Part shown: positions 2,904-15,088 of the stretch, in pieces | Layout of the letters: every line of letters begins with the position of its first letter | Numbering within the stretch: position 1 is the stretch's first letter | Origin: Octopus vulgaris | Taxonomy: Eukaryota | Direction: 5' to 3' | Assembly: GCA_951406725.2 (NCBI GenBank) | Contig: OX597817.1 | Location: 153,884,001-153,948,000, forward strand | DNA: 64,000 nucleotides | Notes under the pieces: model-generated | Database searches by the model: none | Told to the model about the DNA's origin: nothing | Seen by the model: only the letters and a program-made list of their open reading frames with translations | Program-made: the position numbers and the translations under genes

Positions 2904-3296
2904 CATATATGTATATATATATACATATCATACATACATAATTACATACATACTTACACACATAAACACGCAAACGCACACACACATACAGATGAATACA
3001 TGCGCGTGTATTTATGTATGCATTTTTGTATTTACATATTAAATTTCAATGGATATTGTTTTTATTTCTTCTCTCTATTATTTTAAATGGAGCCTGTGAA
3101 TTTAACCTTTTCCTTTATTTTTTATCTGTGACCACAACTTTACATGGATGTAGACTCGTAATAAATACTACGGTAATACATTCATAAAGTATAGGAATAC
3201 TCTTGTATGTATATACGTATGTATATACATGTATACATATATACACACACACATATATTTATATATATATATATATATATATTGTGTGTGTGTGTG

Positions 3297-3379
<83 letters not shown>

Positions 3380-3446
3380 TTATATACATACATGTACGTG
3401 TGCTCATGTATGTTTATGCATGTAACAGTGTCTTGGTGTGTGTCTA

Positions 3447-3635
3447 GGCGGTGAGCTAGCAGTATCGTTAGCACGCCGGGCGAAATACTTAGCGGTATTT
3501 CGTCTGTCTTTACGTTCTGAGTTCATATTCCGCCAAGGTTGACTTTGCCTTTCAATCTTTGCGTACTGGGGTCGATCTAATCGACTGGCTGCTTCCTCAA
3601 AATTTTCGGACCTTTTGCTTTGAGTAGAAAAGAAT
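3447..3635 (+). mobile_element. tRNA-derived SINE, family A
   Basis: GGCGGTGAGCTAGCAG..GTTAGCACGCCGGGCGAAAT..GTTCTGAGTTCATATTCC head shared with more than 10 copies in the window. Confidence 0.85.
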
Positions 3636-4303
3636 GTCTGTGTGTGTGTGTGTGGTATGTATGTGTGTGTATGTGTGTATGTAAATATATGTAAGATGTT
3701 CCTATGTATAGACATTTTTATCTTACCATATGTTGCACATGTGTAGCTGATCCTTTATATCATAGAACTTGGAGTCAAATACTAATCTGATATTTTTGTA
3801 TTTATCTCACTTGTAGCCAATATACTATATCATTGCTCTGTTTCTATTATTGTTATCGTTCTATTATTTTTTTCTGTCTTTGACTTTTTCTCAAATATCC
3901 TCTTGCTGTTATACAATGCATGTTGTGCTGTTAGCACCCCAAACCCCAACAGATACACATTTCCGCATTTAAGTGGATGTTGCCCATGTTCTTTTAGTTC
4001 TAATAATGTTATGTTTTATTTAATCTTTTAACTATTCTCCTACCACTTAGCTCAAAAGTATTTTTCATATAAGTTTTATTCTTTTTCTATTGAATACAGA
4101 AACTAACCAAAGTTGTATTAGAAACTTAAACGCTAATGGTACCCCAGTTTTGTATTTCCTCAAATATAAGAGAATGCCCTTATGTAATCAATATATCTAA
4201 CAAAACACTAATTTATTTTGGCAGTAATGTATAAACCTATTTAGAATAGGAATTACCATTGTATAATAATGTACTGTTTGGAATAGCTATACACTTCTTT
4301 TGA

Positions 4304-4535: not shown

Positions 4536-5676
4536 TATAGCTATATACTTCTTTTGTGAAATCGGTCTACATCCGAAAATCATATCGTTACATCATTATT
4601 GCCATAGAAATGCGGATCATGAATGCTTTATTCAAATTCACCGGCATCTTCCAGACATTAACACGATGCAGAAGTCTAGCTATTTACTTTGTCCTATTTA
4701 CATTTCTGTCTTGCGTTTCACACAACTTGGTACTAGTCCTCATTACGTTGGCGCTATTGTGTGTGTGTGTTTAGTGAATCAGTAAGGATATACATAAATT
4801 ATAGGCAGGATATATTCTACAAGACATGACATGTTCTCAGATCGTGGTTCAAAGATGTGAAATATGTGCCAACAACAACCAGCAGCCTCATCATATCGCT
4901 TCTAACTTTGGCCAAAAATTGAAGCGCATCGTACACCACCATCACAAGGAATGACAGTCTGGATGACCCTGATGTCTACAATATATTCGAAGTTTTCTTT
5001 TGTTCGTTATGTTGTAATTGCACTCTCCACTTCAGTGAAGTAGCTTGGTGTCAATATCTCGATAGTCTTTTCTAATCTAGCGGGTACAAAACAAACTTAC
5101 ACTGGTGAACAAGCGCTGACACTAAAACGATGGTATACACACGTATACACCTGTGCACACAAACGCACATATATGTATATATAACAGGCTTCCGCACAGT
5201 CTCCGACTATCGACTATATTGAAAGTTATTGGTCGGCTTGGGGCTATATCAGGAGACAATTGCCGCTGCATCGCGCGAAGTAAACACTTTAACGACCCAA
5301 TAATATACATAATATGCATATATATATGTGTGTATGCATGTGTGTATGTATATATATATATTCGTTGTTTTTCCGTCTTCATAGCATGTAATTCATTTTT
5401 GTGATTATTCATGTTTCACTCATATATATACTCACATACATGTCTGTCTAATAAGCATGCTGCATATCATTTTCATATATCAAAATCAAACACATTCATT
5501 TAATAATCTTCACTGTTTTTATAATTGTTATGTTTATATACCAAAATCCGAATATAATTTTCATTGTATCTATGCATGTTAATAAAAATGTGATATATAA
5601 ATTGGCTGAAGTGTGCATACGAAGGTTGTGTTAGAATACTGAATGTATATAACACGTGTATTCGGGAAAATATGAA

Positions 5677-6036
5677 CAGGCATACCTCAACTTAGGTCGG
5701 TAATTAGTTCCAAGACATATAACTCAAGTCGAAAAACGACGTGACCTAAATATTAAAATATTAATTTTTTAAATAACTTATTTGTTTATATATATTTTAA
5801 TAAATGGTTTGTACCTATTTTCACATATATTTTATTTGATTTCCCCCCTTCAGCATTGGCCTTTAGGTGCTTTTTTTTTTATTAAATTTTTATACGTTTG
5901 AATACGTTTGCGCAGACATGTAAAATCGGATAATCAACTGATGTTGAGGTTTATTCCTATAAAGAAAAATAAAACAAAACATTATGTAATGTGGAAAAAG
6001 TTGTAACTCAAAACGACTCAAGTTGAAGTATACCTG
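5677..6036. mobile_element. pogo/Tigger-type MITE
   Basis: Imperfect TIRs CAGGCATACCTCAACTTAG / CTCAAGTTGAAGTATACCTG, with TA on the right flank and an AT-rich non-coding interior. Confidence 0.6.
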
Positions 6037-6808
6037 TATTTGACTTCTGATACTTGTCTTTTTTATAATTAGTGTCACTGATGAAGAAAACTCTCAGGTA
6101 AAGTACATAATGAACTTATATTTTTTGAAGATGTTTCTTAACGTAGGGATATTGAAATATCACAGAGTTATTAGATAAACCGATATTCAAAAGGTTAAAC
6201 ATTATTTTGAGTGTAATACGTGTTGTATCTTTTATTGTTCTTTATTTCTGTAACTGTTTCAATGGTTTAAACCAGGAGTCGCCAAACTTTTTCGACTATC
6301 AAGTCCCTTTAGCCTCTTCTCCTTCTACATCGAGCCCTTTTAGTTACTTCTTCCGCTCCTTTTGCATCAACCACTCTCCTAATTCAAAATATCTTAATAG
6401 CTTACCCTTCTGTACCATATCTTAAATGCGTACCAGGTACTAATGCTGGCAATGTTAGCTAAAATATACATGCACGACAAAATTCAGAAATTCTATTGAA
6501 GATGACTCACTTTTTATATTTAAAATTACGTGTACGAGGATACAGTATTAAACTTTCAATTTTTATGAAATTGTTTTCACGGTTAGAAAATGTGGAAAAC
6601 GCATCATATTGCTGGAATATTATTTATTGAAATTGACGTCAGTGTGTGGTATGAGCATGGTGATCCTGGATCAAGGCATTGATATCAAGCTGAATGTTGA
6701 TCAATTTCAGTCTCAAATCACCTCGTTCCTCCAGGTTCAAGCAATATTGTTTTTAATCAATAATTCTCGAGTCACGATACTGTATTTTCTTAGTATTTAA
6801 CTATACAA

Positions 6809-7029
6809 AGGCGGCGAGCTGGGAGAATCGTTAGCACGCCGGACAAAATGCTTAGCGGTATTTCGTCCGTCTTCATGTTCTGAGCTCAAATTCCGCTGTG
6901 GCCGACTTTTCCTTTCATCCTTTCGAGGTCGATAAAATAAGTACCATTTGATTTCTGGGGTCGATAAAATCGACTTACCCCCTCTCCTGAAATTGCTGGC
7001 CTTGTGCTAAATTTGAAACCAATATTTAA
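6809..7029 (+). mobile_element. SINE family A
   Basis: Family-A head and core; TSD TTAACTATACA at 6797-6807 and 7030-7040. Confidence 0.9.
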
Positions 7030-7418
7030 TTAACTATACATTATTTTTTTTTTGTTCTTTTTCTTTTTCTGGAACAAAAGCTAAGTGGGGCCCACCACCA
7101 TCAACAATTTATGGAATGGTCATCGAGGGTAACTTGTTTCAAAGCAATGCTTCTAAAATAACAATTCCTTACAGAAGAAATAATATTACTTACGTTTCTC
7201 AATTCTAAATATATAAATTCCATTAAAAAATTAAGTCAACTCTAACATTATATTTTATTTTAAATTATTATAATTATTATATTTAAAATATTATAATTAC
7301 TCACTGAAAGTAAACTAAAATGGGTAATGGATGCTGGTAAATTAACCATATTTGAAAACATAAACTGTAATTCTATTAAACTTCAATTAACAGAATAACA
7401 TTTAAATACTATTAACAA

Positions 7419-7420
<2 letters not shown>

Positions 7421-7449
<29 letters not shown>

Positions 7450-7706
7450 CATACATACATACATACATACATACATACATACATACATACATACATACAC
7501 ACACACACATACATACATACATACATACATACATACATACATACATACATACATACATGCATGCATACATACATACATACATACATACATACATACATAC
7601 CTACATACCTACCTACATACATACATACATACATACATACATTCATATATGCATACATACATACATACATACATACATACATACATACATACATACATAC
7701 ATACAT
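7421..7706. repeat. (TACA)n microsatellite
   Basis: Long tetranucleotide array. Confidence 0.95.
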
Positions 7707-7936
7707 CAGTGTATTTGTGTGACGGACGCAACTCTACCAATCAAACAAAACGGGCGTTATATCCGAATGGTAGTTTATACAATCGATAATTTGAGACGGA
7801 TAAAATAACTACCATTTTGATTAAGATCAAAGGTACTATGTTACACTTAGAGCTGTGTGGGCAGTGTCCCTGAAAAATTGCTATGAAACAAATGAAATCA
7901 ATAAAAGCAACAGAAATTTTTTAAAATTAATGTACT

Positions 7937-8347
7937 ACTCTTTTATTCTTTTACTCTTTTACTTGTTTCAGTCATTTGACTGCAGCCATGCTGGAGCACC
8001 GCCTTTAATCGAGCAACTCGACCCCGGGACTTATTCTTTTGTAAGCCCGATTCTATCGGTCACTTTTGCCGAACTGCTAAGTAACGAGGACATAAACACA
8101 CCAGCATCGGTTGTCAAGCAATGCTAGGGGACAAACACAGACACACAAACACACACACACGCATATATATATATACATATATACGACGGGCTTCTTTCAG
8201 TTTCCGTCTACTAAATCCACTCACAAGGCTTTGGTAGGCCCGAGGCTATAGTAGAAGACACTTGCCCAAGGTGCCACGCAGTGGGACTGAACCCGGAACC
8301 ATGTGGTTGGTAGACAAGCTACTTACCACACAGCCACTCCTGCGCCT
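7937..8347 (-). mobile_element. tRNA-derived SINE, family B (CORE-like), full length
   Basis: On - strand: GGCGCAGGAGTGGCTGTGTGGTAAG..GGTTCAGTCCC..GTGGCACCTTGGGCAAGTGTCTT, internal TA/TG microsatellite, tail ..GACTGAAACAAGTAAAAGAG. Confidence 0.9.
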
Positions 8348-8719
8348 ATAATGAATTCTAATGAAATAATAGGTTGCCAGGGTAACTTTTGAAATTGTTT
8401 TGAGAGCTTATCAAAAGATATAAAATGATGAAAATAAGAAATGAATTAAGGCCACAAGCCAGTTTCGTTCAATACCTAATCGTTTTTCAATCTCATTTTT
8501 CCTTTCAATATTTGACATATGTCAGAAACATTAAGTTGTTGGAGGAAGTATCTTGTGGCCATTCCTTTGGTTTGTTACATCTGAGTTCGTATTCCACCGC
8601 GGTCAAATTTGCCTTACATCCTCTGCCCTACATCCATTTCGATGAAATGAAGTAGCAGTGACGTATTCGGATCGATGAAATTGTTTGTCCCACTCCCATT
8701 AAAACTGCCAGTTTTAATA

Positions 8720-8800
8720 AGTTAAGAAAGCAATCGATTGGTTATTAGTTAAGAAAACAATCGATTGGTTATTACTTAAGAAAACAATCGATTAGTTATT
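8720..8800. repeat. 27-bp minisatellite x3
   Basis: Unit AGTTAAGAAAACAATCGATTGGTTATT repeated three times with few mismatches. Confidence 0.9.
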
Positions 8801-9011
8801 AAGTGTCTTTGATCGGATTGTGAAGATTGTAGGTGGCAGGTTTGACTTTATAAACTGTCCACCGAATGGTTAACAGCTCGAATCCTTTCACTTCTGTACA
8901 TTATATCTATGGCTATAGATATAGTTTTGAAATGTTCTAGTCCTCTTAGCATAAAATATTTACCACGACTGCGATAGAGCATTAATCTTAGCAGTGGAAA
9001 TATAACAGCAT

Positions 9012-9409
9012 TACTCTTTTACTCTTTTACTTGTTTCAGTCATTTGACTGCGGCCATGCTGGAGCACCGCCTTTAGTCGAGAAAATCGACCCCGGGACTT
9101 ATTCTTTGTAAGCCCAGTACTTATTCTATCGGTCTCTTTTGCCGAACCGCTAAGTAACGGGGACGTAAACAAACCAGCATCGGTTGTCAAGCAATGCTAG
9201 GGGGACAAACACAGACACAGAAACACACGCATATATACATATATACGACAGGCTTCTTTCAGTTTCCGTCTACCAAATCCACTCACAAGGCATTGGTCGG
9301 CTCAGAGCTATAGCAGAAGACACTTGCCCAAGATGCCACGCAGTAGGACTGAACCCGGAACCATGTGGTTGGTTAGCAAGCTACTTACCACACAGCCACT
9401 CCTGCGCCT
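9012..9409 (-). mobile_element. SINE family B, full length
   Basis: Highly similar to 7937-8347. Confidence 0.9.
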
Positions 9410-9599
9410 ATGTTTTTTATTCTTTCAGGGCTAAGATCAAATCGTGCTTAGACAGTAATTGGATGTATCTAGCTAACACCCTTATACATACATAACATAA
9501 AATAAATCGCCTCGTCCGGCATCATTACTACTTAATGAGAAGTAGGGCTCATTTCCAGTTAAATTAAGTTTGGTAATAGAGTGTGTAAATTATTGAAGT

Positions 9600-10135
9600 A
9601 AACGAAAATGATGGATAAAATAAATGTAGTCGAGCTAACGGTTTCTCACGAAGATAATATGGACGCCGCTCGGGCTCGAAAATTGAACCGTTATGAAAAC
9701 CTCCTCGAGGAATGTGAAGACGCAGGCTGGAAAGCGGAACATTTTCCTATCGAAGTCGGATGTAGAGGGTTTGTAGGACACAGCGTGAGACGACTGTTGT
9801 TATCGCTAGGCCTAACTCATCGTAAAGTCAATACCACCATGACTGATATCCAATCTACAGTGGAGAAGGCTAGCCACTGGATTTGGTTAAAAAGAGACGA
9901 TGGGCGATGGCTAGAAGTATATTGAGTTCTTCATAACCAGCTGATCTAGCAAGCGGGGCCTCATATCAGTGAGGGGGGCCGGTGCGCATTGATGCCGTCG
10001 AGAGGTAGGCCCCGAAACGGCGCGCATTCTCTCCTGATGACCCCATACACTTGCTAGCTTCCGATATACGGAGCTTTTAACTGGTAGCACTTGCATGTGC
10101 AAGTTGTTTGCAAGACATCAGTAATGAAATTAATA
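9600..10135 (+). mobile_element. 5'-truncated non-LTR retrotransposon with restriction-enzyme-like (REL) endonuclease C-terminus, HERO-like, plus 3' UTR
   Basis: ORF 9608-9925: VELTVSHE..ARKLNRYENL..C..GW....PIEVGCRGF..S..LG..EKASHWIWLKR, the C-terminal REL motif set of this LINE group. A GC-rich structured 3' UTR follows. Ends approximate. Confidence 0.8.
9946..10057 (+). ncRNA. Rearranged (non-circularly permuted) hammerhead ribozyme candidate
   Basis: GTC 9997-9999, GAAAC 10014-10018, CTGATGA 10034-10040. Perfect stems GCCGT/ACGGC, GAGAG/CTCTC, GGGGCC/GGCCCC, CTAGCAAG/CTTGCTAG. Confidence 0.65.
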
Positions 10136-10651
10136 TATTTTCGTTTAAAGCTTTAAGGGATATTCCACAAGTAAAGAATTTTAGTGAGAATTTTATCAAG
10201 CTTAAAATAGCGTATGTCGCAATTGGGGAATATTAGACGAATTTAATAAACTATAAAGTTATATGAGAGTGAAATATGAAGTAGCGTTAAGGAACGTAAA
10301 CTAAAATATAGATAAGGAAGGAAGAAACTAAAAATAGCACTCATTCTGACGTATTTAATATGTCAGTCTTACGCAAAACACTATTTTACATCAAATTGAT
10401 GTTATCTGAAATATGGTAGTTGACTTTACTTTTAACGTTTCATTTCTGCCACTTAGAAAGTGAAAGTAAAGCGACCGACTGTCATTATTTCTCTGTTGCT
10501 TGTGTTAACTTTAATTAGCATCAAGTCTTCCTTTCACACATTAGAGAAGGATAGCTCCAAATAGATTATGCTTCAGTATCCACTAGCCATTTCTCCCTGT
10601 AGAAAATTGTTTGCAGTGGGGTTTATTTTAGGCAATAATAACACATCACAA

Positions 10652-10860
10652 GGTGTTGAGTTGCTTGAATCGTTACCGTGCCTGTGTTTCGCCCGTCTTT
10701 ACGTTCTGAGTCAAAATTCTGCCGAGAATTGCTTTGCATATAAACCATCAGGGGGGGGATAGGTAAAAAAAATAAGAACCAGCTACGTAGTGGTGCCGAT
10801 ATGGTCGACATAATCCCTCCTCCGATATTGCTGGCCTTGTGCAAAAATTTGAAACTAATA
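10652..10860 (+). mobile_element. Diverged SINE family A
   Basis: GTCTTTACGTTCTGAGTCAAAATTCTGCCGAG core and GCTGGCCTTGTGCAAAAATTTGAAAC tail. Confidence 0.65.
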
Positions 10861-11407
10861 TTAACACAACAGAATGTGTATGGCTAAAAAGAACCCAGCA
10901 TGCTCAACTACCATTTCAGTGGTGAATCTATCTTATGCTAGGTATTCAAATATACCGTCAATACTCTATGTATTGGAATCCACCGTAGAGAAAGGAGCTT
11001 AAATCTTTAAATGCACATATATATATACATGCATAAATATGCATACACATGTATGCGTGAATGTGTGTGTGTAAATAAGATTATGAACCTGCATTGTATT
11101 TAATAGAACGAAGTTATTGTATTTCGAGAAACTTTTTAAAGAGCTTATATAAATCCTGGTTAGTTGTAAAATACATTAAGAGAATATGTGTGCAAAAGTT
11201 AATCAAACACAGGAAAAAGTATTAGGAACATAATTATATTTAAGTTAATAGAGTTAAGACAAATTCTTTAATCAGTGTCAAAATCAGTGTTTTTAACCTC
11301 TTCACTCTTGGGGAGACCTTAAGATACTCTCTGTATTTCAGGAACACCCTCATAAAATGTGTTATATATCTTTAGTTTTTTTCTTTGTCTTTAATTAAGT
11401 TGGGATG

Positions 11408-11791
11408 GAAGCACTCCATCGGTTACGACGATGAGGGTTCCGGTTGATCCGAATCAACGGAACAGCCTGCTCGTGAAATTAACGTGTAAGTGGCTGAGCA
11501 CTCCACAGACACGTGCACCCTTAACGCAGTTCTCGGGGATATTCAGCGTGACACAGAGAGTGACAAGGCCGGCCCCTTGAAATACAGGTACAACAGAAAC
11601 AGGAAGTAAGAGTGAGAGAAAGTTGTGGTGAAAGAGTACAGTAGAGATCACCACCATCCCCTGCCGGAGCCTCGTGGAGCTTTTAGGTGCTTTCGCTCAA
11701 TAAACACTCACAACGCCCGGTCTGGGAATCGAAACCGCGATCCTACGACCGCGAGTCCGCTGCCCTAACCACTGGGCCATTGCGCCTCCAC
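11408..11791 (-). mobile_element. SINE family C (tail type 2)
   Basis: Family-C head; near-identical reverse complement of 62597-62968. Confidence 0.9.
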
Positions 11792-12012
11792 AGTAATGAT
11801 ATCCAACAATTACAATAAGCAAGGACAGTTATAACTGCCGTTTCTAAAAAGTCTGGAAAGTTCTGGAACGCATCTCGTGTCTAAGCGACTAATTCTATGG
11901 AACGATTTACTAAAATTGAAGTAAATCACGAAACGAGTTATTTTTAACATGTATAAGACAACTGATATTCTTTCCTTATTAAAACTAACCATCCTGGCAA
12001 GTTTCAGTATAT

Positions 12013-12099
<87 letters not shown>

Positions 12100-12102
<3 letters not shown>

Positions 12103-12486
12103 TTATATATAAAAGTGAAGTCGTGTGTCTGTCTCCTACGTTTTAGATTCCTAACTACTCCCACATTTTGCGGTGCAGTTTAACCAATACCGGGTATCTT
12201 ATAGTCGTGATTCATATCGAGCCCTTCTGGGTATTAGCGCGCGTCTACAATTTAAAAAAAAATTTACTATTATTTTTTCCATTTTAATGCATTTGTTTCG
12301 CTATTATATAAGGGAAGTAACTCTCTAAAAATGTCTACGATGAGTCAACGATTTAAAAAAAAATTTACCATCATTTTTTTCCCATTTTTAATGCATTTTT
12401 TGCTATTTTTTTTGCTATAACTCTCTAAAAATGCTTATATAGTCATTTCCCTTACAAACCCGAGCAACGCCGGGCGATACTGCTAG
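12100..12486 (+). mobile_element. Non-autonomous Helitron-like element
   Basis: 5' TC(TTTATATATAAAAG), 3' CTAG, subterminal hairpin CCCGAGCAACGCCGGG, inserted between A and T. Copies at 51299-51694 and 59142-59537. Confidence 0.8.
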
Positions 12487-12551
<65 letters not shown>

Positions 12552-13094
12552 TGGCTTCAATCCGCTCCGTATAATTTCTGCTCGACAAAGTGATCTTGGG
12601 GATACAGAAGAGAAATCCATATTGGATATTTACTGCTTTTCCCAGTTCAAAAATTCTACCTCCCACACCGACAAGAGTATTGTTTTCATACTTTCTTATA
12701 TGCATTTTCTGTTAGAAAAACAGTATTTCCCAACTCTAACCTAATGTACATCTTATCATTTAATGTGAGTCTAAATGTTTCCATGGAAGCTTTTCTTATC
12801 TGTCCTTTCTTCAATCTCTACGAATGCATATTACTTCTTGCGTGAAATAAATAGACAATTTATTATCTACCCCTTCCCTTCTTTTAGCTACCGGTGGTTT
12901 TCATAGCTTTGTTTTAGACGAATAATAATTTGGATAGATAAGAGATTAGATAACCTTATGATAAACAGCGTATTTTTAAGGGCACATATTGTGTGTTATT
13001 TTTAAGCAACGGGAAGAGCAGAATATTAACTGATAGGAATTAATACCTTTGTCTTACATTCCACATTGACAAATGTAATTATATATATATATAT

Positions 13095-13150
<56 letters not shown>

Positions 13151-13345
13151 ATATAAATCAAAGATGAGATCCAGAGATTCTCAATATAGAAGACACTTAG
13201 TAGTGCTCAAATGATTTATCAGACCATCAGTTGCAGGGGCTATAAGAAGGATGAAGTTTAGTAGATATGGAGGCAATTTTGCGGATAAACAATTTATATA
13301 TATTGAATATAACACCTTGTGTATGAAATTCAAAATATGTATATA

Positions 13346-13520
13346 CAGTAATTCCTCGATTATCGCGGGTGTTACGTTCCAAAAATTCCCACAGAAATAA
13401 TTAAAATATAAAAAATATAAATACCTATCGGCCGGAGAAACCCCTGATATATTGAGGAGTCTCCGGTATAAATTCACATATATTAGCCTGGAAAATCCGC
13501 GATGTACTGAGGGATTATTG
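13346..13520. mobile_element. pogo/Tc1-mariner-type MITE
   Basis: TA|CAGTAATTCCTCGATTATCGCGG ... CCGCGATGTACTGAGGGATTATTG|TA: imperfect TIRs with TA TSD. Confidence 0.7.
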
Positions 13521-13847
13521 TATGCATACATGCAAAACGAGTGAAAGCAAAAAGTGGAGACTTTCAGTATAAATATATAGATATTTATATCAATAGATCC
13601 AACTTGTTGATTACAAACGACAGACAAAATTTAAAGGTCTGTGTGAGTATGTATGTGGTGGAGAGGTGTTATAAGTCCAGTACCTGTTTCTGGAGCCTCG
13701 GAGATCCATCATAATGTTGGTAGATGTAGTTCCGCATAATATGAGGCCGTAATGGAAGTAATTAGCATTAAATAAATCGAACCTCCGTTATCAGGATAGA
13801 AAAGATCATACATTTCATATCATAATGCAGAAAAGTTTAAAGCCGGA

Positions 13848-14062
<215 letters not shown>

Positions 14063-14067
14063 GGGTT

Positions 14068-14866
14068 AAATTTGTTGGTGAAAATGCACCTAAATTTGAA
14101 AAACTTGTAATTGTTTTTAAATGAATTTATTTACTCATATACCAAACTAGTTTCAAAAAAATGTTTTCTTTCAACAATATTTTTTGTTTATCAATGGTAA
14201 AAATTTAAAATTATGATTTAGAAAAACATGTACAAGTTCAAATGTTCATAACAGTGAATAATATAAAAAAATGTAGAACATCTTGTTTAAGTACACAAAA
14301 TTCAATAGTGTTAGTAGTGATCGATAAGAAATGTGGATCATCAAAGTTTCCGTCATACAGAGTTAAGAGAGAGAAAAACAAAAGAGAAATGACGATGGTA
14401 AAAAAGGGTTTTGTTTACAGTCTCTGTGATCCTCTGTCTGTCGTGTGCAGGGTCTTTCGATTGTAATGGCGTATTTTTGGAATCCAGTGTATTTATAGAG
14501 AGAATCACAGAAGCTGTAAACAAAATCTTGTTTTTACCATCTTCAATTCTTCCTTGTTTTTCTCTCTCTTAACTCTGTATGACCGAAACTTTGATAATAC
14601 ACATTTCTTATCGATCACTACTAACACTATTGAATTTTGTGTATTTAAACAAGATGATCCACATTTTTTATACTATTGGCTGTTATGAACATTTAAACTT
14701 GTAAACATTGAAATTTTTAAACATGTTTTTCTAATTCATAATTTTAAAGTTTTACCATTGATAAACAAAAAGAGATTTTTGACACTAGTTTGGTATATAT
14801 GTAAATACATTTATTTAAAAACAATTACAAGTTTGTCAAACTTAGATGCTCTCCAACAACAAATTT
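14068..14866. repeat. Long inverted repeat (foldback element), arms about 370 bp
   Basis: 14068-14435 is a diverged reverse complement of 14499-14866, with a spacer of about 60 bp. Confidence 0.85.
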
Positions 14867-14910
14867 GTCTACATTTTTCCTGCGTGGAACTACACCTCCT
14901 CTTTTCTTGC

Positions 14911-15088
<178 letters not shown>

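Follow-up and report, generated by a model that had tools for sequence, protein, structure and literature searches.

The survey of hammerhead ribozymes by Eckert, Friedrich, Weinberg and Weinberg (2023) recognizes six orders of the core blocks and, in its accessible parts, assumes that CUGAnGA and its flanking paired bases are inseparable (PMC10085705). The nearest described relative of the RNA analysed here, type SGC (HRIMA-1 and variants), is reported there from metatranscriptomes only, with none in the genomes of known organisms; these RNAs cleave in vitro at 0.007–0.19 per min and are recognized by a pattern in which CUGAUGA(U)G runs directly into a stem II strand whose partner precedes CGAAA. 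Type I hammerheads occur in retrozymes, non-coding elements of 170–400 nt, and in Penelope-like elements; in the freely available parts of this literature, units lie head to tail with a hammerhead in each and the monomers are circularized (PMC7229834; bioRxiv 10.64898/2026.07.22.740005). Animal retrozyme RNA is circularized from cut to cut, RtcB ligating it far better in vitro than the ribozyme does (PMC7229834). Among non-LTR retrotransposons with a restriction-like endonuclease (RLE), R2 is described, in the sources as far as accessible, as having its RNA freed from a longer transcript by a ribozyme (PMC13580325, PMC7650587). This ribozyme is HDV-like and confined to the 5' end, and the R2 template is linear. 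Elements of the HERO clade encode a single open reading frame (ORF) with an N-terminal zinc finger, reverse transcriptase (RT), CCHC motif and RLE.

We analysed a 64,000-nt stretch of the Octopus vulgaris genome (the window; contig OX597817.1, positions 153,884,001–153,948,000), which holds the end of an element that shares this single-ORF organization at the level of its family. Like R2, the family is an RLE-type non-LTR element whose RNA would be cut from a longer transcript by a ribozyme; unlike R2, it carries its putative ribozyme, a hammerhead, in the 3' UTR, inserts at dispersed sites and leaves copies longer than one unit. In contrast to the retrozymes, it is a 3.7-kb autonomous RT–RLE LINE, its predicted hammerhead is rewired, and even a non-coding family with the same motif (family 3, below) has the rewired core rather than a type I or III hammerhead. 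And where type SGC comes from metatranscriptomes, the window motif comes from animal retrotransposon DNA. The features are as follows.

9621–10119, plus strand: 5'-truncated HERO-like RLE non-LTR retrotransposon, the last 499 nt of a 3,737-nt unit
9621–9925, plus strand: C-terminal end of the ORF with the stop codon, restriction-like endonuclease region, equal to the end of the 1112-aa RT ORF of the full copy L032
9946–9953, plus strand: closing helix, 5' strand, pairing with 10050–10057
9955–9958, plus strand: helix IIb, 5' strand, pairing with 10041–10044, the strand directly after A9
9959–9974, plus strand: hairpin, fourth arm of a predicted four-way junction (13–60 nt in other families)
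9975–9980, plus strand: stem IIa, 5' strand, pairing with 10008–10013; G9975 in the role of G10.1
9981–9987, plus strand: helix P5, 5' strand, pairing with 10022–10028
9994–9999, plus strand: stem III, 5' strand, with the GUC triplet; predicted cut C9999/G10000
10000–10004, plus strand: stem I, 5' strand, pairing with 10029–10033
10008–10021, plus strand: stem IIa, 3' strand; G12 A13 A14 A15.1 (10014–10017); stem III, 3' strand
10022–10033, plus strand: P5, 3' strand, and stem I, 3' strand
10034–10040, plus strand: core C3 U4 G5 A6 U7 G8 A9
10041–10057, plus strand: IIb, 3' strand, and closing helix, 3' strand
10058–10119, plus strand: remainder of the post-cut segment (120 nt in all), containing two small hairpins (placed by folding and by the 3' ends of copies)

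An earlier note on this DNA had proposed a pseudoknotted hammerhead in the 3' UTR of a LINE, with stem II replaced by two helices, and the structure it described was borne out: all seven helices are perfect reverse complements, and the core pieces GTC (9997–9999), GAAAC (10014–10018) and CTGATGA (10034–10040) are all present. Every element of the hammerhead core is found in the window (C3 U4 G5 A6 N7 G8 A9, G12 A13 A14, A15.1–U16.1 and H17). The blocks follow one another as S-G-C and not in the cyclic order C-G-S, which places the motif outside types I, II and III, as the note had said; nor does it have the three-way junction free of pseudoknots of those types. That the rearrangement might be uncatalogued held only in part. 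The S-G-C order is already catalogued as type SGC (PMC10085705, in its accessible parts), but no account of the split stem II was found in the literature searched, mostly outside subscription journals.

The window RNA shares with type SGC the core, the block order and a short linker between stems I and II, as well as a helix linking the far ends of these stems, of which P5 appears by eye to be the counterpart when set beside the SGC-1 oligonucleotides (PMC10085705, as accessible). The difference lies in stem II, which is direct in type SGC, whereas in the window RNA (CUGAUGAC) both strands are C-runs that pair upstream. Because the strand at 9975–9987, which lies upstream of block S here, corresponds to the strand that follows A9 in type SGC, the predicted RNA amounts to the SGC fold with its ends joined and a new opening between A9 and G10.1. 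IIb and the hairpin are predicted to shut the break as a four-way junction with zero unpaired bases, and we infer coaxial stacking of the core on IIa and of the hairpin on IIb.

A strict descriptor of this wiring (IIb-hairpin-IIa-P5-III-NUH-I-IIa'-GAAA-III'-P5'-I'-YUGANGA-IIb') had a single match in the whole window, searched on both strands, with the cut after 9999. Across 61 related loci (190,925 bases) it matched 15 times, always on the sense strand, compared with 5 matches in 65.4 Mb of dinucleotide shuffles of the same loci; chance origin of the wiring is excluded. Rfam, which the earlier note had proposed to search, returned no ribozyme match in window positions 5000–15000 or in the L032 junction (E ≤ 5, E ≤ 10). 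The minimum free energy fold was no better than that of shuffles (z −0.34) and did not reproduce the core, which is expected of a doubly pseudoknotted RNA and counts as no support.

The window copy is 98% identical to unit positions 3239–3737 of a natural full copy, L032. Its open frame (9602–9925) ends 20 nt before the motif begins, and a Pfam search of this 107-aa frame gave no match. The 1112-aa frame of L032 matched RVT_1 (E 5e-19) and, weakly, an N-terminal zinc finger (zf-C2H2), with CCHC and RLE (PD..E) motifs identified by eye, so that a single ORF carries the RT, CCHC and restriction-like endonuclease of the HERO clade. The nearest solved relatives of the protein are R2 proteins; by eye against the supplement of PMC7650587, as far as accessible, its RT shares distinctive motifs with HERO-1_BF and HEROTn, and on these motifs, compared by eye, we call the window element HERO-like. 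Literature on HERO elements, searched mostly outside subscription journals, yielded no ribozyme, hammerhead or circular intermediate. The genome holds 2333 candidates for the element's 3' end, of which 40 were scored; the 30 fetched among these are 96–100% alike at the 3' end, as in a young repeat. In contigs of four sequencing runs, the structured part is common to subfamilies that differ just upstream. Two further families in the genome carry the wiring: a second RLE LINE (family 2) and a non-coding repeat of ~0.8 kb (family 3). Two element copies (L035 and L036) lie within a segmental duplication that contains a tandem repeat of ~278 nt. Two similar copies of another short repeat, possibly a SINE, flank the region at 7950–8330 and 9010–9410 of the window.

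Relatives are encoded at 60 metagenome loci, 27 of which, chosen for the presence of the ORF end or an earlier match, were examined with a relaxed descriptor. It matched the sense strand in 23 of these 27 contigs and the opposite strand in none. Among the four that had no match with this descriptor (L071, L080, L105 and L108), L071 shows a core that is recognizable by eye, together with a poor hairpin, and L108 extends only ~100 nt beyond the ORF. In the shuffle control, 475 of 184,343 400-nt pieces had any match and one scored at least 25. The motif lies ~1.6 kb past an ORF end, or upstream of the next ORF, at L081:5042 and L082:586. Among viral contigs, 110 pattern matches included no relative, and a contig of a Bacteroidota MAG (L127) gave one 62-aa HERO-like RT match that is likely eukaryotic contamination.

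For covariation, 16 representatives were picked by hand, one per distinct sequence; a MAFFT alignment of 14 motifs misaligned the helices, and pairs were therefore counted outwards from the core by script. The helix cells were paired in 315 of 320 cases, against a mean of 178 and a maximum of 206 with shuffled partners, counts that include pairing selected by the descriptor and are uncorrected for relatedness. At least two Watson–Crick pair types occur at 19 of the 20 helix positions, and stems I and III, on either side of the core, covary across the 16 families, so the covariation sought by the earlier note is strong, on script counts with relatedness uncorrected. P5, which the descriptor demands, has at least four of its five pairs in every family, and the first IIb pair is held in all 16 with five pair types. 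Two observations are independent of the descriptor. All 16 families have G-C as their first IIa pair, matching the G10.1–C11.1 pair that closes stem II in hammerheads, but with G10.1 supplied by a separate upstream strand; and the base after CUGANGA varies, pairing with the base before GAAA in only one of the 16.

The core itself also covaries. Its 3–8 pair is CG in 14 families, UA in one and UG in one, with U-A in L087, L089 and L090 and U-G in L096 and L097; UUGACAA occurs in three contigs of two distinct sequences, the core pattern having been widened after its discovery. One of the 16 families has a decayed G12. A change from C3-G8 to U3-A8 has been reported in active hammerheads by Perreault et al. 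(PMC3088659, as accessible). The pattern of conservation, including the 3–8 swap, is that of selection on the predicted tertiary catalytic core, and the split-stem-II hammerhead is very probably a working ribozyme, with its cut likely between C9999 and G10000.

The 5' ends of genomic copies gather at this phosphate. Thirteen distinct copies start exactly at 10000 (L221–L230, L236, L246 and L247). The 21-mer starting at 10000 occurs in 696 copies, nine of which differ at all three preceding bases, and all nine begin at 10000. A design covering positions −16 to 0 gave 36 matches (22 fetched; 14 classed by eye as internal deletions or an inversion), 17 of them internal and 19 true 5' ends; 10 of the 19 lay exactly at the cut (P 2.8e-8), the other nine being spread over 16 positions. 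With an anchor downstream of the cut, four of six ends were at 0, two of them new and two shared with the first set. By our own arithmetic, ~3% of the copies that reach the site stop at it. In a control interval, family 1 (the family of the window copy) showed a smaller cluster of its own, ~5 ends by eye at 10024 among 1469 copies, indicating that structure alone can stop the enzyme. The pile-up is weak in family 2 (2–3 of ~9 ends at the cut) and displaced in family 3, with ~4 ends at the cut, ~20 at +7/+8 and more at +12 and +19/20 (both by eye). In 12 of the 13 at-cut copies, T stands directly upstream, perhaps as an untemplated base or through target preference; ends at other positions, too, are often preceded by T.

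The earlier note had assigned the putative ribozyme a role in processing the retrotransposon's 3' end, and this part of its reading did not survive: copies retain an intact site and run on for about 120 nt beyond the cut, to ~10119, ruling out the cut as maker of the element's 3' end and suggesting that it marks a 5' end or a rejoining point. The 3' ends of copies tend to read on into the next unit: T is added at 23 of 43 (P 0.005), A at 15 of 23 (P 0.0015) and 6 nt at one, and AT-rich target choice may contribute to these counts. Because the DNA 3' ends are variable and continue into the following unit above chance, the unit 'end' is likely no RNA end. Reverse transcription likely starts near 10117–10122.

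Forty loci with a 5' UTR were scored, from 75 candidates, against the 3,737-nt unit. As many as 32 of them extend upstream into a 3' UTR, by 7 to 1,975 nt; 24 pass the cut and 20 hold a complete second ribozyme motif. The other eight begin inside the 5' UTR, and neither unit position 1 nor the cut is the start of any of the 40. All 24 captured unit junctions are identical in length, without an indel (L174 and L177 are probably one duplicated insertion). No family 1 copy among the 40 exceeds ~1.5 turns, and no target-site duplications were evident in 12 loci. A linear RNA starting at unit position 1 is ruled out by the lack of 5' ends there and by the exact junction, and an assembly artefact by the hundreds of copies and by contigs of other species: two metagenome contigs are terminally redundant (L072 and L089) and four carry the motif upstream of an ORF (L075, L082, L090 and L102), which extends the head-to-tail form to other species. 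Twelve of the 40 loci are internally deleted (L166, L168, L170, L173, L176, L178, L179, L185, L187, L190, L193 and L195), mostly joining unit ~680–850 to ~3100–3440, each with its own breakpoints.

Several copies carry variants in both of their repeats that are absent from the other loci of the 22 compared (seven in L164, seven in L169, six in L034 and four in L158), privacy that holds among these 22 loci only. These shared variants rule out jumps between unrelated RNAs as the main source of the repeats. A nearest-repeat test was mixed. A copy's own 3' repeat was the nearest to its 5' repeat in three of 12 cases (L161, tied; L164; L171), and other loci were nearer in nine, by a wide margin in the old copies L168 and L172, a comparison that decay after insertion confounds. 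In three young copies (L032, L162 and L163), a one-G deletion is confined to the 5' repeat; it falls in a G-run that is an indel hot spot, and read-through of a tandem master would also yield it.

An endless template, nicked in a minority of molecules at one bond, with one molecule copied twice, fits an RNA ring running from cut to cut, as in animal retrozymes. We therefore propose that the RNA is likely cut after C9999 and that the probable template of the element is a covalent circle, formed when the cut-to-cut RNA is rejoined, a reading to which we give a probability of roughly 0.58. A two-ribozyme copy, the form of 20 of the 40 full-length loci, would be transcribed, possibly by host read-through, and cutting at both sites would release the 3,737-nt unit. 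The ~28 bp between the two halves of the fold would hold the ends together until they are ligated, whether by the ribozyme itself or by an RtcB-type ligase of the host. The element's protein would then use target DNA to prime inside the ring, 120 nt beyond the joint, and would copy round it; most copies would stop early, a few would exceed one full turn and so rebuild the two-ribozyme form, and templates that were still nicked would give the 120-nt copies that start at the cut.

The ring need not be closed covalently. R2 enzymes jump from end to end, and were the template a nicked ring held together by the fold, the RT would copy the 120-nt piece, run off its 5' end and jump to the 3' end of the same RNA, a strong stop followed by transfer. 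Such a jump would account for every genomic pattern that the circle does and for the 120-nt copies directly; one of the 10 at-cut ends (L227) indeed joins the exact cut to a site inside the ORF, and the T upstream of 12 of the 13 at-cut copies is what an untemplated base would give. That T, however, is common at other end positions too, and copies that read through are nearly scarless at the cut, with one to three small adjacent indels by eye among 26 shifted matches compared with 696 copies of the post-cut 21-mer. We regard this route as the strongest competitor of the covalent circle, though a rather unlikely one.

A lesser role for the cut is less probable again. If only a minority of transcripts were cut, be it to release a 5' end from host RNA or to promote translation without a cap, the bulk of templates would be uncut read-through from tandem masters, as the many copies that pass the site intact and the three with the deletion in the 5' repeat would lead one to expect; hammerhead cleavage aids cap-independent translation in RNA viruses (PMC13725137, as accessible). 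Read-through alone, however, only shortens the 5' repeat and cannot place new variants in both repeats, and linear RNA from an upstream cut would give 5' ends at the cut, of which there are zero in the 24 second-round copies that reach it. Least probable of all, and improbable on any count, is a fold that does not cut and serves the element's protein as a handle, with 5' ends gathering at 10000 through stalling of the enzyme on the structure. The 3' UTRs of R2 elements bind their protein, and the further clusters of stops speak for stalling, but a binding site would have no reason to keep NUH, the full catalytic core, G10.1–C11.1 and the tertiary 3–8 pair across proteins that are 40–60% identical, nor would it explain a peak at the one predicted phosphate. 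Taken together, the conserved wiring and the 5' ends at the predicted cut make it likely that the RNA is cleaved at that bond and probable that it is then closed into a ring on which copying goes beyond a single turn. The motif is a real, conserved hammerhead variant, probably active, and the circular-RNA route is plausible.

If so, the motif would add a hammerhead topology beyond the six block orders by breaking the core block that Eckert et al. took as indivisible, and it would place a non-circularly permuted hammerhead, missed by standard searches such as Rfam, in animal genomes. It may also explain how an RLE LINE with dispersed insertions, which lacks rDNA co-transcription, obtains an RNA with defined ends, and it points to a circular, internally primed template in a class for which linear R2 RNA is the model. 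RLE proteins are in development for gene insertion, which would give practical value to an enzyme able to prime within a circular RNA. The wider proposal is an even bet: that HERO LINEs are autonomous retrotransposons replicating via ribozyme-made circular RNA, in which the reopened hammerhead would excise the unit from any host transcript, the RNA would be rejoined and reverse transcription would roll from an internal priming site, the same ribozyme serving retrozyme-like non-coding satellites.

Family 3 may be one of these. It has 1976 candidates (L153 on the minus strand; L196–L220) with a fixed 3' end beside (TA)n; two copies are over-unit with two ribozyme motifs (L211 and L217), and inversions occur in L208 and L215. 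We describe it as retrozyme-like, a non-coding element in the style of the non-LTR retrozymes of PMC7229834, as far as accessible. Near its copy in L211, an open frame on the minus strand (63–977) resembles by eye a Penelope-type GIY-YIG endonuclease. Family 2 (L292–L321) includes a head-to-tail pair with a common private insertion (L303/L304). In this family the motif is conserved except in the short G/C-run formed by the 3' strand of the hairpin and the 5' strand of IIa, which is different in almost every copy, and the counterpart G-run of family 1 (9973–9980) is likewise an indel hot spot; the enzyme likely slips at the four-way junction, causing this variation.

The 5' UTR has a feature of its own. 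Five short hairpins, all on the loop G-GAAAGA-C, lie at L032:4938–5035 (unit 28–128); similar motifs occur twice in L089 and once at the start of the 5' UTR of family 2. Their common purine loop makes them a possible candidate for an array that binds protein or ribosomes.
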